Below, piece by piece: positions 1 to 35,958 of a stretch of 64,000 bases of DNA. This DNA is from a virus. Location of the stretch: IMG/VR virus record IMGVR_UViG_3300031963_012969; one strand, written 5' to 3'. Positions within the stretch are counted from its first letter, which is position 1; each line of letters starts with the position of its first letter. Made by a program: the position numbers and the translations under genes. The notes beneath the pieces were generated by a model. That model did not search any database. It worked only from the letters and a program-made list of their open reading frames with translations, and was not told where the DNA came from.

Positions 1-101
1 GTGAAGTCAGTTGCGACTTCAGCAGCCTTATTGAGATCGTTCGAGGCGATCTTCTCCATGAATTTATCATTAATAAGTTTAGCTGGGATATTAGTATTCA
101 T
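1..101 (-). CDS. Probable major capsid protein, N-terminus only (runs off the window)
   Basis: Manual translation from ATG at 101: MNTNIPAKLINDKFMEKIASNDLNKAAEVATDF. Strong GGAGGA RBS at 111-116. Last in the order protease-scaffold-decoration-capsid. Confidence 0.6.
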   Translation of the reverse strand, partial: MNTNIPAKLINDKFMEKIASNDLNKAAEVATDF

Positions 102-118
102 TTTAAATTATCCTCCAA

Positions 119-595
119 TTATTTGGTTCTGTTTTCTCTTGGAACAAACGTAAGATACGTTTTTGTACCCAAGGAGTATGGTGCACGTGTAACAGTACCA
201 ATAACAACTTCAGTGCTGGCAGCAGCGCAAAGTTGACCATTTTTGGCGGTAAGCTCTGTTCCAACATTGAATGTGTCAGAGGTCTTATAATTGGTTGTTT
301 CGATTTCGAGGGCATTGTTAAACCCAATTCCATGAATAGCGCCATATGGTAATTGACGGTAGCTGGATGGGCTGTGAGATCCACGATTTGTGGATGGGTC
401 TGCGCTATCAACCATTATGATAAATGGAAGAGCGCTGATTGTTGTCGTAGCTGGTTTAGACCATTTGCCTGTTGAATCCACAACAGCGACATCACCCTGA
501 GAGAGGGTAACACCTGTAGCGGCTGCAAGGCTTTTCTCTACGACGGAAGGATTTGGCCAACCCTTCACGATATTTACATTAACTTCGAGAGACAT
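119..595 (-). CDS. Probable capsid decoration/cement protein
   Basis: 158 aa, beta-rich, immediately upstream of the putative capsid gene; 'F-NVGTELTAKNGQL...VIGTV' resembles beta-tulip decoration proteins. Confidence 0.55.
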   Translation of the reverse strand: MSLEVNVNIVKGWPNPSVVEKSLAAATGVTLSQGDVAVVDSTGKWSKPATTTISALPFIIMVDSADPSTNRGSHSPSSYRQLPYGAIHGIGFNNALEIETTNYKTSDTFNVGTELTAKNGQLCAAASTEVVIGTVTRAPYSLGTKTYLTFVPRENRTK

Positions 596-631
596 TTTTT
601 GTTTCCTTTTTTTAAGTTTTGCTCCTACTTC

Positions 632-670
632 ATGTTACTCATGTAACATCGTCTCGTGAGCCTGACGAGA
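632..670 (-). promoter_or_regulatory. Two tandem hairpins in the leader of the decoration/capsid genes
   Basis: atgttac-tcat-gtaacat (632-649) and tctcgt-gagcctg-acgaga (652-670). Confidence 0.4.
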
Positions 671-741
671 TCAACTTAAACTCTTGAATAAATTGATTTT
701 TAATATTTTGTTATATTAATTAAAAATAATCAATACTTTTA

Positions 742-1134
742 TTATCCTTCCATCACTAATTTCTCAAATGGATCTAATTCCGAAAGAGACTGCAAGTTGC
801 TTGGTTGCCCAAAGCTTTCGGCTTTAAGCTCAGAAGCAACTTTGTCTAACACGTTAAAGATTTCAGTTGGGTTATCAGCAATTGAAGAAACAAATGCTAC
901 TTTATTCGACTCCTCTAATATACCTCTTGTAACTAAAGTGTCGGCTATTTTATTTAATCCAGATCTAAAGCTTTCTTTCTCAGAAGAAGCAATTTTTTCG
1001 AGTTGTTCGGCTTTTTTTACTGCACTTTCATAAAGCGGCTCGATTTGCTTGAGTTTTTCTTGATCCTTAAATGCTGGGATAGCTTGTTCAGCAAGCTTCG
1101 CAGCATTTTCGATTAATTCTTTAAAATTATTCAT
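742..1134 (-). CDS. Helical head-assembly (scaffold-like) protein
   Basis: 130 aa, coiled-coil-like, with KLA/KIAS/KIAD/KVAS motifs; located in the head module. Confidence 0.5.
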   Translation of the reverse strand: MNNFKELIENAAKLAEQAIPAFKDQEKLKQIEPLYESAVKKAEQLEKIASSEKESFRSGLNKIADTLVTRGILEESNKVAFVSSIADNPTEIFNVLDKVASELKAESFGQPSNLQSLSELDPFEKLVMEG

Positions 1135-1155
1135 ATTTATTTAACTCCTTTTTAA

Positions 1156-2814
1156 TTAAGCAGCCTGTGGTGGAACTGGAGCTTGGGCCTCAGGTTCAGC
1201 TGGGGCGGATTGAGCTTCTTCGCCTCCACCAGATAATCCTAACTCTTGTAACACCTGCATAGCTTCTTCTTCGCTAATTTGTCCAGATTGAAGAAGTGCT
1301 TCAAGAGCTTGAAGAATTTGCTGAACTTCAGGTGGAACATTAGCTATTTTTTGCTCTCTCTCTTGAGCCACCTTGCTCAAAATGGCGTTCTGAATATTTT
1401 CCTGTTCCATTGCCGACTTGATCAATTTAGCGTCTTCAATGGCTGCCTGATTAAGGTAATCAGTGATTTCAGAATCTGTTTTTCCAGCTTCTTTCAATTC
1501 AGCAACTTTATCGCAAACCATTTTATCAATAGCTTGATTTAATTCATCTTGCTGTTGCGCTGTCTTAAAATATTCTTGTATTTCTTGAGTTGAATAACCA
1601 AGTTCAACAAGCGCAGCAAGTTTTCTATTTGCTTCATCAGCTGCTATATTTTGAGCTGTTTCTCCGTTAATAATTTGAGCGTCATTTTCAGCAGCTTGCT
1701 TAACAAGTTCTGTTATTTCTTCATCCGTTTTACCTTCGGAAACCCACTCAGCAACCTTGCTATTGATATTGGACTCAATCTCTTTGATCTCTTGTTCAGA
1801 AAAGATAGAAGCTGTCTTAGGTTCCTCTTCAGATTCCTCTTGTTCTGTAGCCTCCTCTTGTTCTGGAGCTTCTCCTTCTGGAGACTGACCGCCTTCAGTT
1901 GCGGCCTGAAGTTGCATCAAAACTTGTTGTGCTTGTTCCTCGGAGATTTGACCTTCTTGAACTAATTCCTGTAAGGCTTGCAAAATGAGCTCTATTTCAG
2001 ATCCTTCTTCTCCAGCTTGTGGAGCAGCCTCTTCTGGGGCAGCAGCTGCAGCTTCTTCAGCCATTTTGTCTTCAAGTGTCTTAAACAAGAATTTTCCTAA
2101 TTCATACCCAACAGAAACATTTCTGTAATGTGTCGCAATTTTTTCGGCTAATGCGTCTTCATCTATTTCAATTGCACTAGGCTCTTTAACATCTTCACTC
2201 GCAACCTTAGATTCATCCTTTTTTCTGAGGGCTTCCAGGTCTTTAGAGTCAATCTTGTTATTAGAATTTACGTCAATTTTTTTTTGAGCTTCTGTCAATT
2301 TTTTTTCAGTAGCCTCTTTATCTTCTTTCTTGCCTTCTTCCTTTTCTTCTTCCTTGTCTTCTTCAGTAGAATCACCTTCATCTTCGGATGACTCTTCTTT
2401 TTTTTCCTCAATTACTTTTTTTAATTGCTCTGGCATTTCAGCTTGTTTCTCAAGCTCCTCTGTGGCGAGCTTGATATTGCCTAAAAGTTTGTTGACAAGA
2501 TCAGCGGCAGATCCTTCTTCGGCTATTTTGCTAGAAGGTGAGCATTCTTTTCTGGAACGCTCTTCTGTAGATGGTTCTTTTGTTCCTGGAGCCTTCTCCG
2601 TAGCTTCGACACCCATGGTCAAACCCTTATCTGAGTTCGAACCGGTTGCTTTTCCAGATCCTGGTAAAACCTGGTTAACCTCGGAATCGCTAGTGCCTTT
2701 AGATACGGACGTTTCATTATTTCCTTGCGACTCTTCAGCTGTTTTAGATTCACCTATAAACCTGCGAAAGTCTTCAAGGACTGTATTAAATTTGGGAGCT
2801 TTTCTTTTACTCAT
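1156..2814 (-). CDS. Acidic scaffold/prohead core-like protein
   Basis: 552 aa, very E/Q-rich, with many KxA motifs and internal repeats; lies between the protease and capsid genes. Confidence 0.6.
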   Translation of the reverse strand: MSKRKAPKFNTVLEDFRRFIGESKTAEESQGNNETSVSKGTSDSEVNQVLPGSGKATGSNSDKGLTMGVEATEKAPGTKEPSTEERSRKECSPSSKIAEEGSAADLVNKLLGNIKLATEELEKQAEMPEQLKKVIEEKKEESSEDEGDSTEEDKEEEKEEGKKEDKEATEKKLTEAQKKIDVNSNNKIDSKDLEALRKKDESKVASEDVKEPSAIEIDEDALAEKIATHYRNVSVGYELGKFLFKTLEDKMAEEAAAAAPEEAAPQAGEEGSEIELILQALQELVQEGQISEEQAQQVLMQLQAATEGGQSPEGEAPEQEEATEQEESEEEPKTASIFSEQEIKEIESNINSKVAEWVSEGKTDEEITELVKQAAENDAQIINGETAQNIAADEANRKLAALVELGYSTQEIQEYFKTAQQQDELNQAIDKMVCDKVAELKEAGKTDSEITDYLNQAAIEDAKLIKSAMEQENIQNAILSKVAQEREQKIANVPPEVQQILQALEALLQSGQISEEEAMQVLQELGLSGGGEEAQSAPAEPEAQAPVPPQAA

Positions 2815-2874: not shown

Positions 2875-4203
2875 TTAATTCAACATGAAAGCATTGAATA
2901 TTACATCATCATTAGCGGATATATCGTTTAAAGCAGCAACCTTGTAGGCTAGGTATTGTCTTACCATAGCACGAGACTCTGGCTTTATAGAAGTTTTTTT
3001 ATCATTTAACTCCTCGTTGTAAAGAACTGCTTTTTTTATTTTTTCGTCCTGAACATCGGGAGACAAGATAAATTTGTTTATTTCGTTTTTTGTGTTTTGG
3101 GTAATGGAAGTATTCCCATTACAAGATGAATCAAAATCATGAATAGATGCAATTTTTTCTAGATTAGAAGCCTCTTTCAACTCCAATCTTACACACTCAC
3201 TTATCACATCCTCTGTTTCGTCTATTAAATTTTTGAAATCATTAAATCTGGATCCAGAAGCAAGTTTATAAAAAACCCTAAACGGAAGTATAGATGCATT
3301 TTTAGATAAACAGCTAAACATATCTTTTGGGTTCTTTTTCTGTAGCTCCCTTATTGCAGACTCAGATAGATCTGTTTTATCTAAAACATTTTTAGGGGCA
3401 TTAATGCCGACTGCATCAATATATTTTTGTATCTTAGATAGCTTTTCGGCTATAGCTAACTTCGGGGTAGATAGAATTCTGTTTTCTATTAATTCCGCTA
3501 ATTCAGCCCCGCCCATTGGCTCACTTGTGTCAATACCAGCAATTTTAGCTAAATCCATAGCGATCATGTCTGCTCCGCGATCAACAAATGATATATCATT
3601 CCAATACCCATCTCTATTATATACAAAACATTTTCTTCCATCTGGCAATATCTTGTTTCTTCCAAATGGGTGAGGTGCCGCTTTTTTAACGTGAACACAG
3701 TATTCAGATGGCGCTTTACTTACATTTCCGCATATAGAACAAACATCATTATCACAATGCCACCCCATAGAAAACTTAACGTCTCCACCTCTTTCAACTC
3801 TACCAAGCCAATCAGCACACTTATCTATATTAGCTGCAATAGCTAATTCTACTCTTCCCATTTTTTCGTTATAAGCAGATTTAATTACGTCTCCATCTCT
3901 CTGCTCATGTGGGACTTTACTATTATGATGCCTGTATAATTTAGCTTTCTTCACGAAAGTTGGATGAGATTTTTTACAAACCTCCTCCTCAAAAGCATCA
4001 AAGTTTAAATTACTTCCAGTCTTCTCAAATGACCCTAAAGCAATTAGATGAATTATAGCGTGATTTTTAATTGGCTCTATGTCTCCCCAGCTATGTCTAA
4101 CAGACGAAGCTATCTTATCTCTCCTTTGTGGATCGTCAATTATTTGAACCAGATATTCTGCATCTGGATATTCGAATGAGTCGTTGAAAATTAATTTTCT
4201 CAT
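2875..4203 (-). CDS. Prohead maturation protease-like protein with a Zn-finger insert
   Basis: Motifs N-x-N-x-D-x-F, YRHH, FSMG..CSICGN..C.H and DISFV..GAD resemble herpes/HK97-fold prohead proteases; position next to the scaffold. Confidence 0.65.
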   Translation of the reverse strand: MRKLIFNDSFEYPDAEYLVQIIDDPQRRDKIASSVRHSWGDIEPIKNHAIIHLIALGSFEKTGSNLNFDAFEEEVCKKSHPTFVKKAKLYRHHNSKVPHEQRDGDVIKSAYNEKMGRVELAIAANIDKCADWLGRVERGGDVKFSMGWHCDNDVCSICGNVSKAPSEYCVHVKKAAPHPFGRNKILPDGRKCFVYNRDGYWNDISFVDRGADMIAMDLAKIAGIDTSEPMGGAELAELIENRILSTPKLAIAEKLSKIQKYIDAVGINAPKNVLDKTDLSESAIRELQKKNPKDMFSCLSKNASILPFRVFYKLASGSRFNDFKNLIDETEDVISECVRLELKEASNLEKIASIHDFDSSCNGNTSITQNTKNEINKFILSPDVQDEKIKKAVLYNEELNDKKTSIKPESRAMVRQYLAYKVAALNDISANDDVIFNAFMLN

Positions 4204-5151
4204 TTATTGAAATGCTGGTTGGTCAAAAAATTTATCCCCTAAATACAATTCATTTAAAGCCGGTAGTGCAGCGGCTCCAGCGATAGGAAGCAAACCCTTT
4301 CTTGATAGTGCACTCCGCAAAATCGAAAGAGTTGTTTTACTCAATGGACGTAAAATACTTGACTTTAGTCCACCCTTAAGTGCTTCACTAGCTGTAATTT
4401 TAACTCCACTAGCACGAGCCATTTCTTTGTACATTTTTTCCTTAATCGCTTTTGTATCTATTGAATTTATTAATTTATCTATTTTTTCTCCGCCAAAATA
4501 CGGGTGAGCGCCAACGGCTTTAATAAATTCATCTCCCCCATCTTTCCTGACGTTTTCCGGTAGTGCCGCCAAATTGTTTTTTGTTAAATAATTGTTTAAA
4601 AATCCACCGCCTGCAGCTCCACCAGTTGCTAATATTGTAGTGGGATTTATTATATCCTTTGCTTTATCTTTTAGAGTTTTTTTTTGCTCGCCTCCCCCAG
4701 ACACAAGGTTTTGTGTTACGCCGCCCAAGGTATTTAATATAGATGGAACAGATGCTCCAATAGCACCACCAGCAACCAATCCGCTAAGTGTTGAATTTCT
4801 TTTTCTTCTATTGAAATCTTCGTCTGTTTCGAATTCCCCCTTTGATGAAGAAAGATTTCCAAATAAACCACCCAATGCTGCTCCACCTAATCCACTCGCT
4901 ATATTTGCACCACCTGGAGTGTCTTTGATTTTATCTTTAGCGGAATTTAATCCACTCAATAAAATATTCTTTATTGAGTCTAGTTTGCCGGTTTGGGGGG
5001 ATCCAGCCGAATTGTCGGCTCTTTTTTGTCTTAAGCAGGTTAAAGCAAATTCACCCATTTCGGAGTCAAATTTTTGCATAGCTAATCCAATTTCATCACT
5101 GGCTAGTTTTTCATGCACTTTTGTCAAAACGTTTTCTAAGGTCATATACAT
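4204..5151 (-). CDS. Putative virion protein with glycine-zipper hydrophobic segments
   Basis: 315 aa; GLGGAALGGLFG, GLVAGGAIG, ATGGAAGGG; N-terminal EKLAS. Confidence 0.55.
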   Translation of the reverse strand: MYMTLENVLTKVHEKLASDEIGLAMQKFDSEMGEFALTCLRQKRADNSAGSPQTGKLDSIKNILLSGLNSAKDKIKDTPGGANIASGLGGAALGGLFGNLSSSKGEFETDEDFNRRKRNSTLSGLVAGGAIGASVPSILNTLGGVTQNLVSGGGEQKKTLKDKAKDIINPTTILATGGAAGGGFLNNYLTKNNLAALPENVRKDGGDEFIKAVGAHPYFGGEKIDKLINSIDTKAIKEKMYKEMARASGVKITASEALKGGLKSSILRPLSKTTLSILRSALSRKGLLPIAGAAALPALNELYLGDKFFDQPAFQ

Positions 5152-5167: not shown

Positions 5168-5548
5168 TTAAATATTGGTTATAGATTCACTTGTATATGA
5201 ATCTTGTTGAGATCTAAGCACAGACATTGCATTTTGTATTCTTGTAGTTATTGTCTCAGCTAAATAATTAGCTCTGGTCTGAGCATCAGAAAATGACCTT
5301 TTATCAAAAAAACACACAAAAGGCAAAAACCCTCTTTTCACTTTTACAAATCTGTTTGGTAAAATCCAGTCAGCAGTTGGGCTAGGTGGCTGACCCTGTA
5401 CAGTTTCCTCTCCATAAAGACCTCCAACATTTATCTCGGGTTCACCAAATTTTTGAATTAGTTTATTGTCCTCCTCAGAAAAATCTTCATTTCTGATTTC
5501 TATAAAAAACTTTTGATCGGAAATATATTTTAATATTCTAGTCTTCAT
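5168..5548 (-). CDS. Hypothetical protein (structural module)
   Basis: 126 aa ORF with a 4-bp overlap with the upstream gene. Confidence 0.6.
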   Translation of the reverse strand: MKTRILKYISDQKFFIEIRNEDFSEEDNKLIQKFGEPEINVGGLYGEETVQGQPPSPTADWILPNRFVKVKRGFLPFVCFFDKRSFSDAQTRANYLAETITTRIQNAMSVLRSQQDSYTSESITNI

Positions 5549-7035
5549 TTTTGTGGAGTTTGACCTTGCCCAAGTTGTTTAGTTTTTAATAAATTGTTCT
5601 CTAATTCTACAAGTGAATTGGCAAAATGTGGATCAATTACTTGAGCTGTACCTTGTCTTAAGACAGACCTGGCTATATCCTTAATCATACTGGCATTAGG
5701 GGCTAACTGGATAAGTGCGTTGTAAGAGTTTTCTATTTCTGATGGATCTTGCTGAGATATAATATCGTCATTCATTAACTCCCTCAAGATAGCTTCTCTT
5801 TTTATGTTTTCTATCTCTTGTTTGTCTATTTGGTATTTTTTAGGATTATCTATTCCCCTTAATTTTAAGGAGTACCCATTTGCCGCTGTATCAGCCATAG
5901 CAGAATCTGAGGACATTAGTTGAGATTTAAAGTTGTTAGACATTTGATCTAACACCATTTTGCCTGGACTAAATATTTGTGGATATTCTGTGGGTTTTTT
6001 CTTTGTTTCCTTTTTGTCGCTACTATGTTTAGTGCTATTATTAACTAAATCTGAAGCGCTTTTGTTTAACTTAACTTCATTTTTTTTTAAATCACCAAAT
6101 ATAATTTGGTCAAAGTCAGAAATCAAATCTTCTGGGAATTCGGCAAATTTTTGAGTTGCTGCAATATTCCCTCTGCCTGGACTCCACAAGTAATTAGATG
6201 CTGATGCCTCTTTATTTATCCCGCTTGCATCGCAAATTAAGTTTCTCAATTCGGCTTCTTTTGCAGAACAATCTCTGACAAGACTATTAAATCCAGTCAC
6301 ACTGTTAGTGTACATGGACTCAGAATCAACCAACCCAGAGAAACACCTTAAAAATTTATTGTCATCGTAATTTACATCACCGGATAAATTCTCAGATAAA
6401 TCATCTATAGTTATTTTTGCAACCTTAGCTATCAAACCAAGTATTCTCCCAGCGGGTTTATTGTCTTGATACTCGTAAAAAATTTGAGCAGCATAATCGG
6501 CTACCTTCTCTCTCTCTTCGGTAAACTCAAGTATTTCTGAAGCTTCTTTCATGCCCTTGTAGAATGCCTCTCTGCTGTCTATGATTAAATCCCTCTTTTC
6601 ACTTAAATCCCTGTTTTGTTCATTAATAGCAAAGAACGCTGTTTTGATTCTGGATTCTAGTGGGATGGACGAGGTGCTTGCAATATCAAACTCTTCTTCT
6701 GAAGCGGTCTTAGACACTTCTTCAGTAGCAAGAAAATCATTCAAGTCCTCTTTCATTTCTGAAACAACAGAATTAGGAGCAATTTGAGTTTCGTTGAAGA
6801 CGCTATTTATTACTGTTTTTTTGTCTGCTATGTCAAAGTCTGCTGACTTGTCTTTAGCTATTTTTACATAAGCTTTTGTCTTCGCAGTATTGAAAGCTTC
6901 AATTACCCTGCTAATAGTCTCTGGGTTAAGTTCATGCTCTCTAGCTACTTTTATAATACTATCATTAGCATTTATACCAGAATTATGGAGTTTAATAGCA
7001 GAGTTAAGTGCTTTTTCAATACGCTCGTAAATCAT
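5545..7035 (-). CDS. Hypothetical virion-associated helical protein
   Basis: 496 aa; KVAR, KSAD, KTAS, KEAS, KFAE, KSAS motifs. Confidence 0.6.
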   Translation of the reverse strand: MIYERIEKALNSAIKLHNSGINANDSIIKVAREHELNPETISRVIEAFNTAKTKAYVKIAKDKSADFDIADKKTVINSVFNETQIAPNSVVSEMKEDLNDFLATEEVSKTASEEEFDIASTSSIPLESRIKTAFFAINEQNRDLSEKRDLIIDSREAFYKGMKEASEILEFTEEREKVADYAAQIFYEYQDNKPAGRILGLIAKVAKITIDDLSENLSGDVNYDDNKFLRCFSGLVDSESMYTNSVTGFNSLVRDCSAKEAELRNLICDASGINKEASASNYLWSPGRGNIAATQKFAEFPEDLISDFDQIIFGDLKKNEVKLNKSASDLVNNSTKHSSDKKETKKKPTEYPQIFSPGKMVLDQMSNNFKSQLMSSDSAMADTAANGYSLKLRGIDNPKKYQIDKQEIENIKREAILRELMNDDIISQQDPSEIENSYNALIQLAPNASMIKDIARSVLRQGTAQVIDPHFANSLVELENNLLKTKQLGQGQTPQK

Positions 7036-9010: not shown

Positions 9011-9850
9011 TTACCTTGTTCTTTTATTTCTGTTTAAGAAATTTTGATAATCTTGAATGTATCTTTTGTCGGCGTATATTTGATTTGGAGTTACATTTGA
9101 ATTCTCTTTGTATATTTGTCTAACTATGTCAGCCCTTCTTCTATCTGCAACAGATTTAGAATTGTAGCTTCCCATGACTTTAGACAAAAAGGCATCAGTT
9201 GGACCAGTAGATGTATTTACTCCAGCAGCAGATTGTTGATCTTTCCTGACTGGCTGCGCTCTTCTTACTTCAACCATTCCGTTTGTGGTATTCATTTTTG
9301 GGGACGTACCCACTGCTTTAGGTAAAAAGCCAGGTGCATCGTTTATAGCGGAATTTATATTTGCCTCGTTCTGAGTATTATATTGCTGTGTAGCATTTTC
9401 AACTAAAGAAGACCCTGAATTTCCTCCAAAAAATGAAACAGCGCCAGATGGAAGATTCTTATTTAAGCTACCCTTCATTGGAGACGCATCTGCAACCGGT
9501 AAATTATTTTTGAGGTAATTTCTTCTTTTTTCTAATCTTTTATTTTCGAGTCCCATTATAGCGCCTCTTGCAGCATCAGTGGGGCTTTCTTTACCGTACA
9601 GGTTGTACGCAAAATCTCTTGCTTTTCCAAGCATAGTATCCGTTCCAGTAAGTTGATCATAGAGTCCAACTCCACCAGCTCCAGTAACAGCTGCGCCGCC
9701 AATTCCAGCCATTAGCTTAGGGTTAGAGGAAATAGCCCCTCTTGCAGCGCTTATGGCCGGAGAAATAAATGGTTTAGCAGCACTAAATATAGATGCTGTT
9801 TTGGCTTCTTTAGTTAATGTATTTTTATATGTTTCGGTATATTTATTCAT
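9011..9850 (-). CDS. Putative virion cargo protein (MNKY-leader family)
   Basis: 279 aa; leader MNKYTETYKNTLTKEAKTA followed by GIGGAAVTGAGGVG. Confidence 0.55.
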   Translation of the reverse strand: MNKYTETYKNTLTKEAKTASIFSAAKPFISPAISAARGAISSNPKLMAGIGGAAVTGAGGVGLYDQLTGTDTMLGKARDFAYNLYGKESPTDAARGAIMGLENKRLEKRRNYLKNNLPVADASPMKGSLNKNLPSGAVSFFGGNSGSSLVENATQQYNTQNEANINSAINDAPGFLPKAVGTSPKMNTTNGMVEVRRAQPVRKDQQSAAGVNTSTGPTDAFLSKVMGSYNSKSVADRRRADIVRQIYKENSNVTPNQIYADKRYIQDYQNFLNRNKRTR

Positions 9851-9852
9851 AG

Positions 9853-10191
9853 CTAATTTAATGATGCAGTGGTTAAACCACTTAATTCTTGTAATCTATC
9901 TCTTAGCAATCTTGCATAATCAGACTGAAGGGATCTAGTAAAAACTGTATCTTTTTTAACGCCGTCTTCTAGTATCATGTCCTTTAGACTATTTGCGGTT
10001 CCGGTAATCTTATCTATTGGCTTAGTCAGGTCAATCATTTTTCCATGTGTTCTAGAGAAAATAGATTTAGGAGTATTTTTTACGGCATTATATGCGGTTC
10101 CAATAAGTTTAAGTGCCATATCACCTCTACCAGCCGTTTTATTAAGCTCTATGTCAAGCCTACTCAAATATGTATGTGTATCTTTGTTCAT
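9853..10191 (-). CDS. Putative virion cargo protein
   Basis: 112 aa; leader MNKDTHTYLSRLDIELNKTAG. Confidence 0.5.
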   Translation of the reverse strand: MNKDTHTYLSRLDIELNKTAGRGDMALKLIGTAYNAVKNTPKSIFSRTHGKMIDLTKPIDKITGTANSLKDMILEDGVKKDTVFTRSLQSDYARLLRDRLQELSGLTTASLN

Positions 10192-10751
10192 CTATATTTA
10201 ATGCTTCTTATGTTTATGTCACTCCATAAATTATTTTGAGTTTCGTCTTGATTTTGTGGCTGATCTCCAAATGCCGAATCAATACCTGTATCAATAGCGT
10301 TATTGATAGCCAATCCAGGTGTTGCAACACCAAATACGGTTCCAATATCTTTAGCAGATATATTCTTGATTCCTCCCCTTTCCTTCGCTATTGCAGTGGC
10401 TGTGTTCCATGGCTGAGTAAATGTATTACTCATTATCGACATTGCCTTATTTTTAATTGGCTGATTTGATTCTAATATGCCCCTATACCCTCTTGCCATT
10501 GATCCAATGCCTCCTGTAATTCCGCTACTTAGATTGCCAACGCTTTTTATTGTTTTTTGCGTTAATGGCTTTGCTGCACTAACGCCTTTTTGAATTGCGC
10601 TAGAAACTATTGGCTTGGCTGTATTTAATAAATTTTTTACACCAGCGGAAACAATTGGTTTTGCTGCAGAAAATGCGGCCCTGGCGGCTGGCACCACAAA
10701 TGCATTTTTTTGATTTAATTCATTAAAATAGATTTTTGAGTATTTATTCAT
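10188..10751 (-). CDS. Putative virion cargo protein (MNKY-leader family)
   Basis: Start moved to the ATG at 10751 (MNKYSKIYFNELNQKNAF), which removes the overlap with the upstream gene; AKP repeats. Confidence 0.55.
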   Translation of the reverse strand: MNKYSKIYFNELNQKNAFVVPAARAAFSAAKPIVSAGVKNLLNTAKPIVSSAIQKGVSAAKPLTQKTIKSVGNLSSGITGGIGSMARGYRGILESNQPIKNKAMSIMSNTFTQPWNTATAIAKERGGIKNISAKDIGTVFGVATPGLAINNAIDTGIDSAFGDQPQNQDETQNNLWSDINIRSIKYR

Positions 10752-10752
10752 A

Positions 10753-18128: not shown

Positions 18129-18587
18129 TTATTGTGCTGGTTGTACCTCAGTATTTGCTTGAGCCTGTTGATCGGCTGAAGCAGATTGCTGCTCTTGTTG
18201 AGCTGCTGCTTGCTGTGGATCTGCACCAGTTATTTGTGCCATCATTTGCTCTATTTGGTCAAGTCTTTCTTGAACACTTTTTTTCTTTTCCCCCTTACCA
18301 CCCATTTTCATTGCCTGTAATTCCATACCAATTTGTTGAACAATTTGCATTGTTTGCTGCTGCATTTGTGCTAACTGCTCTAGCCCTCCCTGTATTAATT
18401 GTGCAAGCTCTGGAAATCCTATCTGAGGCTGACCATCAGTTCCTGGAGCTGGTGGAGGTGGCTGAGGAATTGATCCTTCTTGTTGAGCCTGTGCTATTGC
18501 TTGTTGTGTTTGGGGAGAGGACACAAAAGCTTTTTTATCTATCTTGTTTAATATTTCGTTTAATAACTCTGTATTAAAATTTAACAT
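18129..18587 (-). CDS. Q/P-rich putative virion protein
   Basis: 152 aa; leader ends at DKKAF, followed by low-complexity Q-rich sequence. Confidence 0.55.
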   Translation of the reverse strand: MLNFNTELLNEILNKIDKKAFVSSPQTQQAIAQAQQEGSIPQPPPPAPGTDGQPQIGFPELAQLIQGGLEQLAQMQQQTMQIVQQIGMELQAMKMGGKGEKKKSVQERLDQIEQMMAQITGADPQQAAAQQEQQSASADQQAQANTEVQPAQ

Positions 18588-23557: not shown

Positions 23558-24556
23558 TTAAGTTATATTTGCTGTGTTTATTGAATTATTGGAAACATTC
23601 TTAAATGCATCTGGATTCCTAATTATAGCGTCTATTATTGTTTTTTTAGGAACTTTGTTTCTTAGAGAATTTAAGTATGGATCTGGATTTTGCTGAGCTT
23701 TTCTTGCTACAGTTCTCGCAAGGAACCCAGGAACGCCTGGTATTTTCCAGTCGTGTTTTATAGCGTTATTAAAGAATTGGTCAACGTTTAAATTTTTAGA
23801 CAAAATTCTTTTGTATAATCCCTCTGGTGTTTCATTTGGAATACTGGTCTGAAGTTGCGGCAATTGAGCGTTAGACTTTTTCTGGAACGGTTGTCCAACT
23901 GGCTGAAATTGATTTGCCTGTTGAGGCATTTGTTTCATGGGAACAGACACATTAGATGGAATACCTGGTCCAGTGGATGTAGCGCTAGATGTATAAGTTG
24001 GTGTATAATTTTGATTTATCTGTCCAGGATTACGCGCAGCCTCGTCCATGGAGTTTTGAACATTAAGTTTACCTAGCTCGCCTAACATTTGTCCTGTACC
24101 TGCTATAGTTTTAATAGGGTTAGCAAATCCATGCCAAGCTCTACCCATGACACCTTTATCTGCAACCTGTTGAGTTTCTGCTAAATTTTTTGCGGGATCC
24201 ATTGCGACATCTACCCCTTGCAACGCCATATTTCCGGCCCATGCCCATGGTGCCGCTTTAGAAGCAAATCCCAATGCTTTCCCAGCCACTCCAGCTGCGT
24301 TAGATGATTGAGCCATCGCTCCAATTGCGTTATTCATTCTAGGAGCAACCTTTGACAAGTGATGACGTCCTTCGTGCAACAAACTGCTGGCTCCTGTACC
24401 GCCTTCGGCAATACTAACTGCTTGATGTAGTCCATGCCCGTGTCCAGTGTTTGCTACGGCAAGACCGTCACTTACAGCAGAAATTGGCTGACTAATTAAT
24501 CTTGGAATGCTGCCAAATCCAGCCTTTTTACTTAACAAAGATAATATTTTTTTCAT
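23558..24556 (-). CDS. Putative virion cargo protein, Ala/Gly-rich amphipathic
   Basis: 332 aa; leader MKKILSLLSKKAG. Confidence 0.55.
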   Translation of the reverse strand: MKKILSLLSKKAGFGSIPRLISQPISAVSDGLAVANTGHGHGLHQAVSIAEGGTGASSLLHEGRHHLSKVAPRMNNAIGAMAQSSNAAGVAGKALGFASKAAPWAWAGNMALQGVDVAMDPAKNLAETQQVADKGVMGRAWHGFANPIKTIAGTGQMLGELGKLNVQNSMDEAARNPGQINQNYTPTYTSSATSTGPGIPSNVSVPMKQMPQQANQFQPVGQPFQKKSNAQLPQLQTSIPNETPEGLYKRILSKNLNVDQFFNNAIKHDWKIPGVPGFLARTVARKAQQNPDPYLNSLRNKVPKKTIIDAIIRNPDAFKNVSNNSINTANIT

Positions 24557-27009: not shown

Positions 27010-27037
27010 TTGACTTTTTCGATATAACTGATATGGT
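27010..27037 (+). promoter_or_regulatory. Possible sigma70-like promoter for tRNA-Gln and the glycosyltransferase
   Basis: TTGACT-N16-TATGGT, 17 nt upstream of the tRNA. Confidence 0.35.
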
Positions 27038-27054
27038 TTTCTAATTACCACCAG

Positions 27055-27127: not shown

Positions 27128-27143
27128 CATACAAAAACAAAAC

Positions 27144-29604: not shown

Positions 29605-30639
29605 TTAAGAATTAAATCCTACTGCAAAACTTTCGAGTATTCTCTTTTTGTATTTCTCAAGCTTTGCTAAAGCCTCTGGATCAAGAGCGTCCAATTGAAC
29701 ATTACCGGAGTCAGTGGTCATAACCATAGTGTTAGGGTCAACTTTTTGAATATCCTCGCTTGAAACTATTGGGTTTCCCCTTCTGCTTTCTCTGGCTTTC
29801 TCTTGTGGGTCCTGTTCACGACTATTTAAGTTGGAATCGGGATTAACAACTTTTTCAATTGTATCTATAATTGATGTTGAGGCGCCTTTTGTTAACAACA
29901 TGTCTTGTTCAGATTCTTCTTGGACTGGCTTTGAGACTATTTTTACAAATTTAGGGGCACTCTTCATCTCAGAAGCTTCCTCTTTTTCAATAGCTCTATC
30001 TATATTTTTTTGTCTATTGTAATAATAATTATGAGCGCCTATTCCAGCAAGTAATGCAGCAACTCCAGGTAAACTTGTTAAAATCGTACCAACTGTCTCT
30101 CTACCTGATCCATCGCTAGGATTAGCTTTTTTTATTAAATCTTGAGCAGCATTCTTTCGGTAATCCTCAGAAGGAGTTCTGTGAACTTTGTCAGCAATAG
30201 ATAAAATCAAACCATCTAGCACTGGATACTCTGCTGTCTTTGAGTCAACAGTCATTTGCTGTGACATGTAATCAGCATATTGTTTTTTAAGCGACTCCAG
30301 TTCATTATCTAGTTGTTTCTGCCTCTGTTTCTTTAATATACTGTTTACAATCGCGTATCCAGCGCTGCCGCCAGCCAATGCAGATCCAGCAGCAAGTGGA
30401 GCGTCCCATAAATATTGTCCAAGTTCTGGAGCGGCTGTTTTAGACGGTACCTCTATCACAATGGTGTCTCCGTCTTGCTTTTTTTTAGTTGCCTCCTCTT
30501 GTCTTTTTTTTAACGCTAGTATGTGGGCTACTCCAGCTAACCCAGCACCAATTCCTGCTGCAGGTAATCCGTGTCTAGATAAACTATCCTTTAACATATC
30601 AAATGTTAATCCTGGTACTGATGCTGCTTCTTTTCTCAT
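29605..30639 (-). CDS. Putative virion protein with three KxA + hydrophobic-helix units
   Basis: KEAA..AAGIGAGLAGV; KTAA..LAAGSALAGGSAGY; KKAN..GVAALLAGIGAH. Confidence 0.6.
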   Translation of the reverse strand: MRKEAASVPGLTFDMLKDSLSRHGLPAAGIGAGLAGVAHILALKKRQEEATKKKQDGDTIVIEVPSKTAAPELGQYLWDAPLAAGSALAGGSAGYAIVNSILKKQRQKQLDNELESLKKQYADYMSQQMTVDSKTAEYPVLDGLILSIADKVHRTPSEDYRKNAAQDLIKKANPSDGSGRETVGTILTSLPGVAALLAGIGAHNYYYNRQKNIDRAIEKEEASEMKSAPKFVKIVSKPVQEESEQDMLLTKGASTSIIDTIEKVVNPDSNLNSREQDPQEKARESRRGNPIVSSEDIQKVDPNTMVMTTDSGNVQLDALDPEALAKLEKYKKRILESFAVGFNS

Positions 30640-31182: not shown

Positions 31183-31626
31183 TTAAATTAATCCACTAGT
31201 GTCTAGTTCTTCTTTGTGTGTATTCAAGTTTTTTTCGTCTCTAAAATTTTGTATCATTTTTTTGTAAGCTTCGACCTTAGCCTTTGTAGCTTTGATGTCT
31301 TGAGTCTCCGTACCCTTTACGGCTTTTTCCATTTTATCTCTGATCATTGCAGTACCAACCCCAGTTAAAGCACCTGCACCAGTTAAGAACACTGCATACT
31401 GTTTAGCTAAATCAACTGGATCAAGTGCCACTTTGGATAGCATTTCATTTGCCTCTTTTGGAGTAAAACCTTTTTCGCTTAATATTTTGCAGAAACCTAA
31501 TTTAATTGATCTGTAGCATTGAGCCTTGTTATCTTCTTCTATAATTTGTTTAGCAATTTTATTCATATATTTAATAAGTATAGTAACCTTTTGAGTTAAA
31601 TTGTGGACCACCCTTTCTACCCCCAA
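31183..31626 (-). CDS. Putative virion protein with one glycine-zipper helix
   Basis: SKVAL...LTGAGALTGVGTA; true start probably MNKIAK. Confidence 0.55.
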   Translation of the reverse strand: MGVERVVHNLTQKVTILIKYMNKIAKQIIEEDNKAQCYRSIKLGFCKILSEKGFTPKEANEMLSKVALDPVDLAKQYAVFLTGAGALTGVGTAMIRDKMEKAVKGTETQDIKATKAKVEAYKKMIQNFRDEKNLNTHKEELDTSGLI

Positions 31627-33043: not shown

Positions 33044-33052
33044 ATAAATACT

Positions 33053-33739
33053 CTATTGCTGTCTATTTACTGGTGTACTTTTGAATGTGTCTGCAATTTG
33101 CTTTCTTAAGGAATCAAGTGCGGCTCTGCCCGAATTTGTTATAGAATCTTTATTTTCCGATACATATCTACCTAATAAAGCTCCACCTGCTGCACCGAGC
33201 CCAGACGCAATGGGTCCCCCGCCAAATGCTTTGGGCGCAAAAGCTCCTACCAATCCACCAGCCAACATCGGAGCAACATTGGTTAAAAATTCTGGGCTCT
33301 TTAAATAAGACCACGCTTTATCTCCGTACTGCTTAGCTCCACCCAATACTTGCTGTATCTTTTCGTTGGCTATATCATTCATGGAAGATCTCATTTTGGG
33401 TTCAACAAATGGTCTCCAGAGTGGCGAAGTTTTGTCAATCACTCCCTGAACCAGTCTGTCTTTAGCTTTACCGATGCTGTCCATTACTCCTTCTTGTGCA
33501 TCTTTTTTGGGCATCACATAATTTTCTGAAAGCCACTCTGCACCTTTATCACAAAATGACTCTATTATTCCAAGTGCCATATCACACGAGACATTTGCCT
33601 CTTTATGTAGATAATCTACAAAACCCCTACAGAGTTGCACTTGAGAATCATTTGACTCAAAATTTAAATCTGTTTTGGCTAGTTTTCCTAACTTTAAAAA
33701 AACTTTATCTGTAAATTCTGGAGTAATACTAAAAGTCAT
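33053..33739 (-). CDS. Putative virion protein with a glycine-zipper hairpin
   Basis: LAGGLVGAFAPKAFGGGPIASGLGAAGGALLG; KLAK/KEAN/KGAE/KDAQ. Confidence 0.6.
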   Translation of the reverse strand: MTFSITPEFTDKVFLKLGKLAKTDLNFESNDSQVQLCRGFVDYLHKEANVSCDMALGIIESFCDKGAEWLSENYVMPKKDAQEGVMDSIGKAKDRLVQGVIDKTSPLWRPFVEPKMRSSMNDIANEKIQQVLGGAKQYGDKAWSYLKSPEFLTNVAPMLAGGLVGAFAPKAFGGGPIASGLGAAGGALLGRYVSENKDSITNSGRAALDSLRKQIADTFKSTPVNRQQ

Positions 33740-33782
33740 AAGATATATAATGCACTATTTTTGATGTTGTTTCTATAAAAAT

Positions 33783-35516
33783 TTATTGCCCTTGCTGATT
33801 TTGTACAATTTGAGGTAATGCTTGATCCATTCCAACTGATCTAGCTTGGTTCCTGTACTGATCCATCTTCTTAAGAACCAAAGCATGAAGCGTGTCGTTG
33901 TTATTTCTTATAGAAGTGAGCTGTCTCTTTCTCTCTGTTTCTGGCATCTGGAGCAATTGTTTAGCCATCTCATCCGCTTCTTGGTTTATATCTCCAGGTG
34001 TAGATCCACCACCAGAATCTCCAGAAGATGGGTCCTCTTCGTTAATAAGTCCCATTTGAGCCATTTGCATTTCCTCTTGCATCTTTCTTGACTGCTCCTC
34101 TTCTTTTCTTTGCTCCTCAAGTATTTTTTTATGTTCTTCGGCTGGATCAGAAATGCCCATGGGGGCCATTGCAGTTTCTTTGCTAAGTATATTTGCAGAC
34201 ATAGCTTGCAATCTCCATGCTTTATTCTCAATGTCGTCAATTATTCTTACGGATTCAAGTTCACACTCATAGTCTCCACTGCCCATATACGATGACACCT
34301 TGGAGACACAATCCTGAGCCAGAAGATTAAATCCTCTAACTAAACTGGACCAACCTCTCTCAAACACACGCAAACTAATAGGAGCAGCTTGAAGAGTCAT
34401 TGTGCTTCTATATAGCTCTGGAGGTATGCCTCTACCATTTAACATTCTATCCTCTTCGTCTTTAATTAAGTCTACTGGAGTAAGTTGTCTTCCTTCGCCT
34501 CCTACCGCTTGGTACGTAACCGGAAAAGGAAAGAAGTTCCAATCTGTTCCATCCTGTCTGTGCCTTACAACTGCGTCTTGCATCTCAGAGACCCAATTTC
34601 TCATAAGATTGTTGTAGATGGAATTTCCCTCTGCGTAATTGCCTTGAGAAGGGCTAATTATTCTAAGTGGGACAATATAATCCATCATTAATACTTCGTT
34701 GTATCTTCTTAATACCTGAAGTCTGAAGAAATTTTTAAAAGACGAAAGTATTGCTGGAAGACCCCAACCACCAAGCCATAAACCAGCCAAATATGGTTCT
34801 CTCAAGTGGTGTACATGATTAGACTTAAATTTAAACTGTGACTGATTTTTTATTGCTTGTAGAAATGGCAATGGAGTACTTTTTAAGTAAAATTTATCCT
34901 GATTTAATACACCAGTTTTAATTTCATTTGGGATCTCGGTATAATATTCAATATGGTGTGTAAGTCTATTAGCTTTTATGGTAATATGCTTTGGGTTCCA
35001 TCTAACGAGTTTAATCCCTTTACTATCCTTCTTTTTGTAGTCCCTCGCAAAATGTTTTGTATCAGAGGAACACTTGCCACAGAATGTAGTAAAAGAGCCA
35101 TCCTCAGCATTGTATGAAAAATCTACATGATCTATATTCACCTCTCTTTTGCACTTTTGGCAAACAAGGACACGAGTAAACGGTAACGATATTGTAGCAA
35201 ATGAATTTCCGTAGCACATGAAATCATTTCCAACTGCTTGCAAAGACCCAGACAAATCAAAATCGTTTTTAATTAATTTTTCAAATTTTTTTCTTTCGTC
35301 GTCTGCTTGACCCATGAACTTTAAATCAGTCAAAAAATAATTAACAATTCTTTCACTGGCTTTTCTATATGTTGAATCATTAACATATAGAAATTCGCAT
35401 AACTCAAGTGCACTGACAATTGTTCTGGGTGCATAACTAGATGCCAAGTCAATCCATGGGTTCATGAACCCATTATTTGTTCCATTGATCTTCCCACCTA
35501 TAATATCTATATTCAT
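33783..35516 (-). CDS. Probable portal protein
   Basis: 577 aa; D...YGNSF motif, HHLR..GWGLP.I, long helical core, Q/E-rich tail; CxxC..CxxC insert. Confidence 0.6.
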   Translation of the reverse strand: MNIDIIGGKINGTNNGFMNPWIDLASSYAPRTIVSALELCEFLYVNDSTYRKASERIVNYFLTDLKFMGQADDERKKFEKLIKNDFDLSGSLQAVGNDFMCYGNSFATISLPFTRVLVCQKCKREVNIDHVDFSYNAEDGSFTTFCGKCSSDTKHFARDYKKKDSKGIKLVRWNPKHITIKANRLTHHIEYYTEIPNEIKTGVLNQDKFYLKSTPLPFLQAIKNQSQFKFKSNHVHHLREPYLAGLWLGGWGLPAILSSFKNFFRLQVLRRYNEVLMMDYIVPLRIISPSQGNYAEGNSIYNNLMRNWVSEMQDAVVRHRQDGTDWNFFPFPVTYQAVGGEGRQLTPVDLIKDEEDRMLNGRGIPPELYRSTMTLQAAPISLRVFERGWSSLVRGFNLLAQDCVSKVSSYMGSGDYECELESVRIIDDIENKAWRLQAMSANILSKETAMAPMGISDPAEEHKKILEEQRKEEEQSRKMQEEMQMAQMGLINEEDPSSGDSGGGSTPGDINQEADEMAKQLLQMPETERKRQLTSIRNNNDTLHALVLKKMDQYRNQARSVGMDQALPQIVQNQQGQ

Positions 35517-35522
35517 TTGTAT

Positions 35523-35696
35523 TTATTTTGTGTTGTCGAGAAATGTTCCAAGCTTAGATTCGCTTTCAATAATCTCTTCAGCTTTTTTAATTAACGTGCT
35601 TTCTCCTTTTTCTTTGTTGTCACACTCAAATGTAGTAACGCCATTGTCTGTCTCGTGTGGAGTTACGTCTTCTCGCACTATTCCTAATTTATTCAT
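35523..35696 (-). CDS. Small hypothetical protein (57 aa, not in the ORF track)
   Basis: MNKLGIVREDVTPHETDNG...IKKAEEII...; fills the gap upstream of the portal gene. Confidence 0.5.
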   Translation of the reverse strand: MNKLGIVREDVTPHETDNGVTTFECDNKEKGESTLIKKAEEIIESESKLGTFLDNTK

Positions 35697-35697
35697 G

Positions 35698-35958
35698 TCA
35701 ATTTACTAACCCTAATTGATTAGCTTTTTCTATTTTTTCTTCTCTATTGGGGTTTTCTTTAGTTGATAATAGAAAGCTTGTTAAATTGTTACTGAAAGTT
35801 TGGCTGTCGCCTTCGCTATCTAGATTGGCCAGACTTGGTTTATCTCTATCTTTAGAGCTAGTGTCTCCAACATTTTCAGCTGTAGATTGACTAGAGCTAC
35901 TTGATGTTTTTTGCTTTTGGATTTCTTCAATCAAATCAACAGGAAAGATAGGATTCAT
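35698..35958 (-). CDS. Hypothetical protein
   Basis: 86 aa ORF. Confidence 0.5.
   Translation of the reverse strand: MNPIFPVDLIEEIQKQKTSSSSSQSTAENVGDTSSKDRDKPSLANLDSEGDSQTFSNNLTSFLLSTKENPNREEKIEKANQLGLVN

Follow-up and report, generated by a model that had tools for sequence, protein, structure and literature searches.

A Lys-x-Ala motif in the head-assembly proteins of a large freshwater phage and its probable recognition by an assemblin-fold prohead protease

Multi-site head proteins and the capsid protein

The window, i.e. the whole stretch of 64,000 nucleotides analysed here (IMG/VR record IMGVR_UViG_3300031963_012969), comes from a large uncultured freshwater phage of an Arash/D69-like, not phiKZ-like, lineage. 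The following genes of its head module were considered for their content of Lys-x-Ala (KxA) tripeptides.

742..1134, minus strand: small protein, 130 aa, 6 KxA (1.4 expected)
1156..2814, minus strand: scaffold/core-like protein, 552 aa, 18 KxA (6.1 expected)
2875..4203, minus strand: predicted prohead (capsid maturation) protease, 442 aa, identified by structure and sequence matches
5545..7035, minus strand: second scaffold/core-like protein, 496 aa, 13 KxA (4.0 expected), homologue of Arash gp220 and D69 268
10753..12960, minus strand: head-module protein, 735 aa, 8 internal KxA (2.7 expected) and no N-terminal site
33783..35516, minus strand: portal protein, given for context (BLASTP to Arash portal gp204, E 6e-56)

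More than a dozen KxA(S/A/E/G/F) had been reported for the first scaffold-like protein (1156-2814); of its 18 KxA, 11 have S, A, E, G or F as the next residue. Cutting at all of these sites would give fragments of 5-83 residues, and the position of the first, ES-KTA-EE (K24, window 2737-2745), is kept in relatives of 28-54% identity. The sites of the small protein 742-1134 are kept in orthologues down to 28% identity, and three KxA sites of 5545-7035 coincide with those of Arash gp220 (BLASTP, E 3e-9). Orthologues of 10753-12960 were found in the loci L017, L011, L025 and L026. The portal protein contains no KxA (2.0 expected). The most strongly KxA-enriched proteins are helical and rich in Lys, Ala and Glu.

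The EKIAS site attributed to the capsid protein by the original prediction exists (FMEKIAS at residues 17-20), but the gene lies outside the window, to its left (L002:14173-15165). All 11 capsid proteins compared (24-87% identity) carry KxA 10-11 residues before the conserved LRE of the N-arm. The leader ahead of the motif is variable, the Lys and Ala of the motif do not vary, and the first fully conserved column of the alignment is that of Ala27. The capsid protein of phage G has no KxA; unlike that of the window phage, this 282-aa protein has neither the leader nor the Lys.

The prohead protease

A protease of the fold shared by T4 gp21 and herpesvirus assemblin is the supported model for gene 2875-4203. 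The top three of 48,161 chains in VIA-align were T4 gp21 (5jbl, Z 9.5), VZV (Z 7.3) and HCMV (Z 5.5) proteases, Foldseek matched T4 gp21 with probability 0.85, and the PHROG for head maturation protease was matched at E 7e-4. Relatives found by tblastn include phage G gp19, Arash gp222 and a Gordonia 'capsid maturation protease', whereas no curated Pfam family and no solved protease was matched by sequence. H52, H93 and S145 are invariant among the homologues and, by this conservation, candidate catalytic residues. An N-terminal catalytic core of assemblin fold (about 34-214) is followed by a C-terminal helical domain (243-442), and the whole protein contains 14 KxA (3.5 expected). Its sole two disordered stretches flank the core, each holding a conserved KxA.

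4108..4116, minus strand: K30-I-A32, candidate autoprocessing site at the end of the disordered 33-residue leader
3538..3546, minus strand: K220-I-A222, second conserved site, in the disordered 215-242 linker on the C-terminal side of the assemblin fold

Both stretches (residues 1-33 and 215-242) have pLDDT below 50. Nearly all of 120 homologues have a KxA near residue 30, as do 86 of a further 87 representatives. In alignment A2, K220 never varies and A222 hardly does, and the same KxA is conserved in alignment A1 too. The structural alignments with the VZV and HCMV proteases stop at model residue 221-222, i.e. at Ala222, and K220-I-A222 may be the analogue of the herpesvirus release (R) site. 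Profile searches of the head module found no protease besides 2875-4203.

Statistics of the KxA motif

Gapped dipeptides were counted against shuffles preserving the composition of each protein. K.A ranked first of 400 in the ORFs of positions 1-35,700 (117 against 71.6 expected, z 5.6) and 242nd, with no enrichment (23 against 25 expected), in those of the tail/fibre half, 35,700-64,000; the head excess anticipated by the original prediction is thus borne out. A.K, KA, AK, K..A, K...A, R.A, K.S and K.G were not over-represented, and x.E patterns were absent among the enriched dipeptides of the window ORFs. Across 13 data sets K.A[SGA] reached z 4-9, with no such excess of the mirror motif. 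As a control of the method, head proteins of phiKZ were put through the same count: the published S.E came second of 400 and K.A 28th.

KxA sites concentrate at residues 11-30 of unrelated proteins. Of 39 proteins, 20 have a KxA within their N-terminal 32 residues, against 6.5 expected, a count that none of 2000 shuffles attained, and M-x-K-x-A protein starts numbered 13 against 4.0 expected among 262 proteins. Chance is nevertheless expected to account for about one third of the N-terminal matches, and many single matches are fortuitous because the motif carries little information. Those near the N-termini of the accessory genes 14071, 16593, 13722, 25706 and 26474, which have no orthologues in the relative of 65% identity, are probably chance matches.

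The residues around KxA are also biased: P5 is hydrophobic in 56% of sites (against 26%), P1' is Ser, Gly or Ala in 59% (against 25%), mostly Ser, and Pro occupies P1' in only 1 of 147. The extended consensus reads (E/D)-x-(L/M/F)-E-K-(L/I/V)-A | (S/A/G)-A.

Leader-bearing proteins

A single site at the end of a short N-terminal leader was found in further proteins.

4204..5151, minus strand: 315-aa protein, 17-residue leader ending HE-KLA-SD (window 5101-5109)
9011..10775, minus strand: three adjacent fast-evolving Gly/Ala-rich proteins (9011-9850, 9853-10191, 10188-10775)
18129..18587, minus strand: 152-aa protein, leader end ID-KKA-FV (window 18528-18536)
19220..19867, minus strand: 215-aa protein, leader end FG-KNA-SV (window 19805-19813)
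19851..22943, minus strand: RNA polymerase beta/beta' fusion subunit, 1030 aa (RNAP PHROGs), 18-residue leader ending VQ-KNA-LP (window 22890-22898)
23558..24556, minus strand: uncertain site LS-KKA-GF at residue 10
29605..30639, minus strand: doubtful site M-R-K-E-A-A-S at the N-terminus, K-L-S-A in the 65% relative
31183..31626, minus strand: small protein, probable 5-residue leader M-N-K-I-A from an internal Met (window 31552-31560)

The N-termini listed by the original prediction are real, namely HEKLAS (4204), TKEAKTAS (9011), NKTAG (9853), QKNAF (10188/10751), DKKAF (18129), GKNAS (19220), SKKAG (23558), MRKEAA (29605) and QKNAL (RNAP fusion, 19851). Several recur in diverged orthologues: the 4204-5151 site as DQ-KLA-SQ at just 37% identity, that of 19220-19867 as FD-KKA-AS at 32%, and, in the 65% relative, those of 18129-18587 and the RNAP fusion as LS-KKA-FV and LL-KEA-GA. 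The Gly/Ala-rich trio has a common MNK(Y/D)xxxY...L leader ending in KxA (KTA|S, KTA|G, KNA|F). The 96% relative has these leaders too, and in locus L026, whose protease is 41% identical, a leader of this type ends in KKA or KRA. The third member of the trio probably begins at the internal ATG 10751. The real start of 31183-31626 is probably likewise the internal Met before N-K-I-A, as its orthologue in the 65% relative begins M-D-K-I-A. Apart from the site of the capsid protein, eight leader sites are conserved in that relative though their flanks have changed, whereas KxA is not conserved there at 29605 (MRKEAAS) and 33053 (GKLAK). For 23558-24556 an N-terminal orthologue was sought for comparison and none was found. 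Some members of the leader families end in K-x-S or K-x-I instead of KxA.

Of the ten sites listed, at least two (29605; also 33053) thus lack conservation. The claim that KxA identifies the packaged proteome overreaches: a tripeptide this frequent turns up by chance in about 6.5 of 39 N-termini, and conservation fails at those sites. N-terminal sites are also missing from the portal and from two of three RNAP pieces. The RNAPs of Arash and D69 begin MPK(S/K)AS, and in Arash virions no detected protein is more abundant than the RNAP (PMC10585845).

Distribution across the protease family

Some 4,700 cluster representatives make up the protease family, and KxA marks the head-assembly proteins of thousands of relatives. 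KxA was in excess in 120 homologues of 97-26% identity (z 4-8) and in 133 further representatives (ratio 3.7, with A.K depleted). Nine of 10 diverged metagenomic loci placed K.A first or second of 400, as did the cultured phages Arash and D69; its enrichment was weaker in phage G, which has a related protease (rank 4, z 3.1). The phages bearing the motif span GC contents of 0.37-0.63 and include phages of Salmonella and Vibrio. These sequence comparisons support co-occurrence of KxA with the protease family across very diverged phages; co-occurrence alone does not identify the reader of the motif, because the whole head module is common to these phages. No publication of the KxA motif was found in the literature, nor any published specificity for the capsid maturation proteases of phage G, Gordonia or Rhodococcus phages.

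Comparison with known systems

T4 gp21 is the best structural match of the window protease (Z 9.5), and several features are T4-like: a protease gene in the head module adjoining scaffold-like genes, many sites in core proteins (as in T4 gp22), sites on either side of the catalytic core, one site at the end of a short N-terminal leader on unrelated cargo proteins (in T4, the capsid targeting sequence of IPI-III), and a three-residue motif whose middle position is free. The T4 motif is I/L-x-E in the P3-x-P1 register (PMC12991175), whereas P1 would here be Ala instead of Glu and P3 Lys instead of Leu/Ile; the window protease further differs from gp21 in its 442 aa, long C-terminal helical domain and conserved Cys cluster, with no match at the sequence level.

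Like phiKZ and SPN3US, this phage is large and packages a multisubunit RNAP, one subunit of which has a leader, and extensive head-protein processing as performed by phiKZ gp175 and SPN3US gp245 is predicted for it, in the same register and with Ser preferred at P1'. In those phages inner-body proteins and virion RNAP subunits are processed at (S/A/G)-x-E, and SPN3US A-x-E provides a precedent for P3-x-P1 with P1' Ser (PMC10052503); the window motif reads K/A instead of A/E.

Herpesvirus assemblin (pUL26) has the same fold, with P1 Ala and a small P1', mostly Ser, and the same order of N-terminal protease core, linker with motif and C-terminal helical scaffold-like domain with further sites. 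Its P3 consensus is hydrophobic, while P3 is Lys in the window phage, a bacterial virus with dozens of candidate substrates against two for pUL26. In vivo, PrV assemblin ends at Ala225, i.e. with P1 Ala at the R site (PMC4498786).

Bacillus phage G gp19, annotated as head maturation protease (PMC12484599), and the Gordonia/Rhodococcus proteases have 31-32% tblastn identity over the catalytic core, and gp19 itself contains 8 KxA (2.4 expected).

Proposed mechanism and alternative explanations

We consider it likely that the phage's own prohead protease, the assemblin-fold product of 2875-4203, recognises KxA and cleaves after Ala. The KxA specificity originally proposed for this protease agrees with its fold, the co-occurrence, the site positions and the subsite profile, while cleavage, its agent and the bond are inferred by analogy with T4 gp21, phiKZ gp175/SPN3US gp245 and herpesvirus assemblin. 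With Lys at P3 and Ala at P1, cleavage would follow Ala and take place inside the assembled prohead. By cutting at K30-I-A32 and K220-I-A222 the protease would set its catalytic core free; it would also chop 1156-2814, 5545-7035, 742-1134 and its own C-terminal domain into short peptides, shorten the major capsid protein by a leader of 17-27 residues, and strip internal or cargo proteins, among them the RNAP fusion subunit and those with MNKY leaders, of leaders of 5-30 residues. P3-Lys/P1-Ala would be a new specificity for a known kind of prohead protease. In the paper on Arash virion mass spectrometry no protease is reported, and neither N-termini nor lists of peptides are given. Among the proteins detected in Arash particles are scaffold-like ones and the protease (PMC10585845), so that degradation, if any, stops short of complete loss.

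The same protease might read K-x-A in another register, cutting after Lys or one residue on, and mature N-termini would then begin elsewhere than at the residue following Ala. The cut position is taken from analogy, and conservation points to the residues that are read and says nothing of the bond that is broken; yet all three characterised relatives of the fold cut after the last residue of their P3-x-P1 motif, the residue after Ala prefers small side chains and avoids Pro as is typical of P1', and the assemblin-fold alignments end at Ala222 (221-222), making another register unlikely. That K-x-A is an uncleaved docking or capsid-targeting signal for scaffold, portal or protease, its leaders kept on mature proteins, is quite improbable. 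Unrelated proteins do have leaders ending in KxA in common, and Arash particles do contain the scaffold-like proteins and the protease, but a pure binding tag explains neither 13-18 copies per scaffold protein, nor conserved sites in both linkers flanking the protease core, nor the P1'-like small-residue, anti-Pro profile, and wherever systems with this protease fold have been characterised, targeting leaders are cleaved.

Host enzymes can act on phage heads, as in staphylococcal phage 80alpha, whose capsid and scaffold proteins are trimmed by Prp, and co-occurrence does not single out the protease within the common head module. Recognition of K-x-A by a host protease or another phage enzyme is very improbable even so: the motif persists in phages that include those of Salmonella and Vibrio and range in genome GC over 0.37-0.63, which makes one conserved host enzyme unlikely, the phage protease has conserved KxA at its own domain borders, and searches of the head module gave no other protease. 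The least credible view takes the excess for a by-product of the composition or structure of helical scaffold proteins, with no signal function. The most enriched proteins are indeed helical and rich in Lys, Ala and Glu, but the enrichment survives shuffles holding each protein's composition, A.K and the helix spacings i+1, i+3 and i+4 are flat or depleted, the sites gather at residues 11-30 of unrelated proteins and in disordered linkers, and the capsid leaders vary at every residue but the invariant Lys and Ala. The mirror and spacing controls largely refute a by-product.

Genomic setting of the protease candidate

The window has a GC content of 0.37, derives from an uncultured large freshwater phage and carries nearly all of its genes on the minus strand. 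Among cultured phages it is closest to Salmonella phage Arash and Vibrio phage D69, with ~33% RNA polymerase (RNAP) identity and identical gene order, and the head-module gene order of Arash matches that of the window. The protease candidate is located within this head module, with the portal on one side, the major capsid protein on the other and the scaffold-like protein 1156-2814 adjoining, and many head-module proteins without known function lie between portal and protease alongside the RNAP pieces. The features are listed in transcription order, from 35,516 down to 1.

Features of the head/RNAP module
33783-35516, minus strand, portal (E 6e-56 against the Arash portal)
28147-29592, one of three pieces of multisubunit RNA polymerase
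27144-28154, sole plus-strand gene, in a block without orthologue in the 65% relative
19851-22943, second piece of RNA polymerase (fusion subunit)
16593-17897, DNA repair exonuclease, a block without orthologue in the 65% relative
14726-16582, third piece of RNA polymerase
14071-14661, 2OG-Fe(II) oxygenase, in a block without orthologue in the 65% relative
2875-4203, minus strand, protease candidate
1156-2814, minus strand, scaffold-like protein
742-1134, minus strand, scaffold-like protein
just left of the window (L002:14173-15165 in the 96% relative), major capsid protein (PHROG major head protein, E 2.4e-6)

The model of the capsid protein matched the HK97/encapsulin fold (prob 1.00), and its low confidence (pLDDT 57) confines its use to the fold class.

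Enrichment of KxA in the head module

The test counted each of the 400 residue pairs with spacing 2, every protein being shuffled on its own. The original prediction had proposed Lys-x-Ala (KxA, K.A) as the code of the head protease and had listed N-termini bearing it, all of which were found present; the predicted excess over shuffles was also borne out, since K.A ranked 1st of 400 in the ORFs of 1-35,700 (117 observed, 71.6 expected, z 5.6). The tail/fibre half gave K.A as 242nd of 400 (23 against 25 expected). Within the first 32 residues, KxA occurred in 20 of the 39 proteins of 1-35,700 against 6.5 expected, a value reached by none of 2000 shuffles, and in 3 of 24 proteins of the tail half against 2.65 expected. 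Five ORFs showed marked excesses.

KxA sites observed and expected in individual ORFs
1156-2814, 18 against 6.1 expected
2875-4203, 14 against 3.5 expected
5545-7035, 13 against 4.0 expected
742-1134, 6 against 1.4 expected
10753-12960, 8 against 2.7 expected

The window and 12 further data sets showed enrichment of K then A at spacing 2 alone, while A.K, KA, AK, K..A, K...A, R.A, K.S and K.G were at or under expectation. K.A followed by S, G or A was enriched 2-4-fold (z 4-9), and the mirror image was not. KxA is therefore a directional and specific motif and not a composition effect.

Distribution of the motif across the protease family

Nearly all of 120 protease homologues (97-26% identity) carried KxA near residue 30, with a 3-5-fold excess (z 4-8). 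An exhaustive profile search yielded 4,702 cluster representatives, of which 2,372 were at E <= 1e-30; in 87 further normal-length representatives, KxA occurred 1152 times against 313 expected (ratio 3.7), the mirror A.K was depleted (201 against 316 expected), and 86 had KxA at residues 15-60. Head neighbourhoods of ten diverged loci, metagenomic or from IMG/VR (75-29% protease identity), placed K.A 1st or 2nd of 400 in nine cases, with z of 4.0-9.5, and most of the ten also showed N-terminal clustering of KxA. The rank of K.A was 1st in D69, 2nd in Arash and 4th in phage G. Across these comparisons the KxA motif travels with the protease family.

Several other sources of the excess were considered. 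Helical composition was rejected on the mirror and other-spacing controls, and Sec-type signal peptides were rejected because the KxA leaders are polar. A nucleotide-composition artefact was also rejected, since the motif is kept from GC 0.37 to 0.63, the range of the loci (0.30 with phage G counted), and the same spread speaks against one and the same host enzyme. Run on phiKZ head proteins as a positive control, the test returned the published S.E as 2nd of 400, with K.A 28th. The same test placed no x.E pattern among the top gapped dipeptides of the window head ORFs, which differ in this respect from systems with the Glu-specific motifs (I/L)-x-E of T4 and (S/A/G)-x-E of phiKZ/SPN3US.

Of the 150 top family representatives, about one third (P0121, P0123, P0150 and ~45 others) are 750-1300 aa long, because one or two inteins with Hint and LAGLIDADG/homing endonuclease domains interrupt the catalytic domain. 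These inteins sit near profile positions 68 and 150, which are the most conserved motifs.

Structure of the protease candidate

No Pfam family matched 2875-4203, a PDB profile search by sequence found no protease for it, and PHROG 18299 'head maturation protease' gave a weak match (E 7e-4). Its AlphaFold (AF2) model (pLDDT 79) was compared with 48,161 PDB chains, among which T4 gp21 (5jbl) was the best match (Z 9.5, rmsd 2.9 Å over 135 residues), followed by the VZV protease (1vzv, Z 7.3) and the HCMV protease (8j3s, Z 5.5), so that the predicted structure has the assemblin/gp21 fold. Foldseek returned gp21 with prob 0.85 and, searched with the whole 442-residue model, nothing at E <= 0.001, the kinship being clear only from the exhaustive structural aligner. 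In tblastn searches the protease core matched a Gordonia phage capsid maturation protease and gp19 of phage G, which is annotated as a head maturation protease (PMC12484599). The tie of 2875-4203 to prohead proteases is thus at the level of predicted fold together with tblastn matches to annotated phage proteases. Residues H52, H93 and S145, candidates for the catalytic His and Ser, do not vary among 32 homologues that share as little as 23% identity.

The model contains exactly two disordered stretches, residues 1-33 and 215-242, and inside them fall K30-x-A32 and K220-x-A222, the two KxA sites best conserved in the family. Structural alignments to the herpesvirus proteases stop at residue 221, at the second site. 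Taken together, these positions suggest a protease core, a cleavable linker and a C-terminal helical domain bearing additional sites, a layout like that of herpesvirus pUL26 (PMC4498786). We propose that 2875-4203 may process itself at the KxA sites in its predicted disordered linkers.

Just after Ser145, at window 3664-3741 (residues ~155-180), the homologue alignments A1 and A2 show an invariant Cys cluster (C155, C158, C169) and a nearly invariant H171, which in sequence looks like a zinc-binding insertion. We know of no such insertion in T4 gp21 or the herpesvirus proteases.

Capsid protein and N-terminal leaders

All 11 capsid proteins found with this protease (24-87% identity) carry K-x-A 10-11 residues ahead of a conserved N-arm motif, (Y/F)x(R/K)xxLRE. 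The 22-40 residues preceding it are freely variable, and the alignment has its first invariant column at Ala27. The capsid motif EKIAS cited in the original prediction is present (K17-I-A19) and is a second, upstream site of the subclade of the window, so that the deeper conserved site is K25-A-A27. The 282-aa capsid protein of phage G aligns at this site without Lys and without leader.

Compared with the 65% relative, so called from its protease identity, the position of the site was kept with changed flanks in 742-1134, 1156-2814, 2875-4203, 4204-5151, 5545-7035, 18129-18587, 19220-19867 and the RNAP fusion subunit, including proteins of only 37% (4204-5151) and 32% (19220-19867) identity. 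The site position was not conserved in the ORFs at 29605 and 33053. Arash gp220 (32% identity) has KxA sites at several of the positions seen in 5545-7035.

A common leader, MNK(Y/D)xxxY..L, was found on 9011-9850, 9853-10191, 10188-10775 and three proteins left of the window, a family of at least six small Gly/Ala-rich proteins (window 9011-10775; L002:15240-17506 in the 96% relative). Otherwise unrelated head-module proteins share such a short N-terminal leader, as in T4-type capsid targeting, where a short common leader likewise ends in the recognition motif. Here the ending is KxA in most members; two end in K-L-I or K-S-I, and some leaders in K-x-S or K-x-I. Analogous leaders occur in distant relatives, including the locus L026, whose protease is 41% identical. 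For 10188-10775 the internal ATG at 10751 is most likely the true start (MNKYSKIY..., as in the 96% relative), and for 31183-31626 the true start is most likely an internal Met giving MNKIAK, its orthologue beginning MDKIAE.

The original prediction held further that KxA identifies the packaged proteome, which the motif alone does not do: about one third of N-terminal matches are expected by chance, an N-terminal site is lacking in the portal and in two of the RNAP pieces, and leaders ending in K-x-S or K-x-I escape it. Matches in accessory genes that the 65% relative lacks (the 14071 oxygenase, the 16593 exonuclease and small membrane-like ORFs) are probably due to chance. In Arash virions, RNAP was the most abundant protein detected, with 3,516 spectra (PMC10585845), so this RNAP lineage is really packaged. 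The Arash paper mentions neither protease nor cleavage (PMC10585845); paper and supplement contain no peptide-level data, and the 'coverage' column cannot be taken as sequence coverage in the literal sense (2 peptides, for example, give 89.7%) and is therefore of no use for judging leader removal.

Proposed cleavage site and processing

T4 gp21 reads I/L-x-E and cuts after P1 (PMC12991175), SPN3US uses A-x-E with Ser at P1' (PMC10052503), and the herpesvirus assemblin cuts after Ala (PMC4498786). Since those enzymes with this fold that have been characterised recognise P3-x-P1 and cut after P1, K-x-A would correspond to P3-P2-P1, cut after Ala; this cut position, taken by analogy, is the weakest step of the proposal.

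A total of 147 N-terminal sites in relatives, with the window excluded, gave the consensus (E/D)-x-(L/M/F)-E-K-(L/I/V)-A-(S/A)-A. P5 was hydrophobic in 56% of sites (26% background), P1' was S, G or A in 59% (25% background; Ser 3.3-fold enriched), and Pro occupied P1' in 1 of 147 sites against a background of 5%. The first KxA peaked at residues 11-30 and fell sharply beyond. Starts of the form M-x-K-x-A were found in 13 proteins against 4.0 expected, and four of the 13 come from one leader family, so this excess is only suggestive. The herpesvirus assemblin consensus is hydrophobic-x-Ala followed, after the cut, by Ser. The KxA profile would match it in Ala at P1, by analogy, and in a small P1' residue, mainly Ser; it differs at P3, which is hydrophobic in the herpesvirus site and Lys here, with Arg no substitute (R.A not enriched).

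On this basis the protease would free its own catalytic core, the multi-site scaffold/core proteins would be chopped into ~5-80-residue peptides, the capsid protein would lose its leader, and single-site proteins, including the MNKY-leader family (9011, 9853, 10188 and three left of the window) and the RNAP fusion subunit, would shed short leaders.

To our knowledge, the specificity of the prohead protease has been established in just a handful of phages, which either cut after Glu (T4, phiKZ, SPN3US) or were solved case by case. Our literature search found no published Lys-x-Ala specificity for a capsid protease, and a report that it missed may exist. KxA would be a new specificity of a known kind of prohead protease, a reading well supported comparatively. 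Our wider reading is tentative, and we rate it somewhat below an even chance: a very large, almost wholly uncultured tailed-phage clade (~4,700 protease clusters) may use a previously undescribed Lys(P3)-x-Ala(P1) prohead protease, the first phage protease with the herpesvirus 'cut after Ala' rule, with the five residues hydrophobic-x-K-x-A doubling as an address tag that loads cargo, including a virion RNA polymerase, into the capsid through docking on protease or scaffold. If true, both the packaged proteome and the mature N-termini would be predictable from sequence in thousands of uncultured phages. A K-x-A rule for a family of thousands of members would let propeptides and candidates for injected cargo be predicted in large uncultured phages, link the specificity of phage and herpesvirus assemblins, and provide a short tag by which Arash and D69 capsids could be loaded with foreign proteins. 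It would also tell which protease-sensing immune loops could detect such phages; CBASS CD-NTases are activated when a prohead protease cleaves a motif-bearing loop (PMC12991175).

Other features of the window

The RNAP fusion ORF of the 65% relative (L043:5796-10808) encodes 1670 aa against 1030 aa at window 19851-22943, so the split of RNAP into pieces differs between close relatives; in Arash and D69 RNAP is one piece of ~1525 aa. The 65% relative lacks orthologues of blocks 13070-14661, 16593-17897, 22947-23552 and 24569-28154, all within the head/RNAP module; they seem to be accessory DNA inserted into a module that is conserved.

Window 43877-51598 is a single 2573-aa ORF in which KxA is not in excess (4 against 4.7 expected). 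Over 51603-60361, which holds three large ORFs of the minus strand (1187, 1080 and 454 aa), GC rises from ~0.33-0.36 to 0.52-0.56. The three ORFs are Ala/Gly/Thr-rich and Lys-poor, with G.T, P.G and A.G strongly over-represented (z 9-15). These are probably repeat-built tail fibres with a composition unlike that of the rest of the phage.
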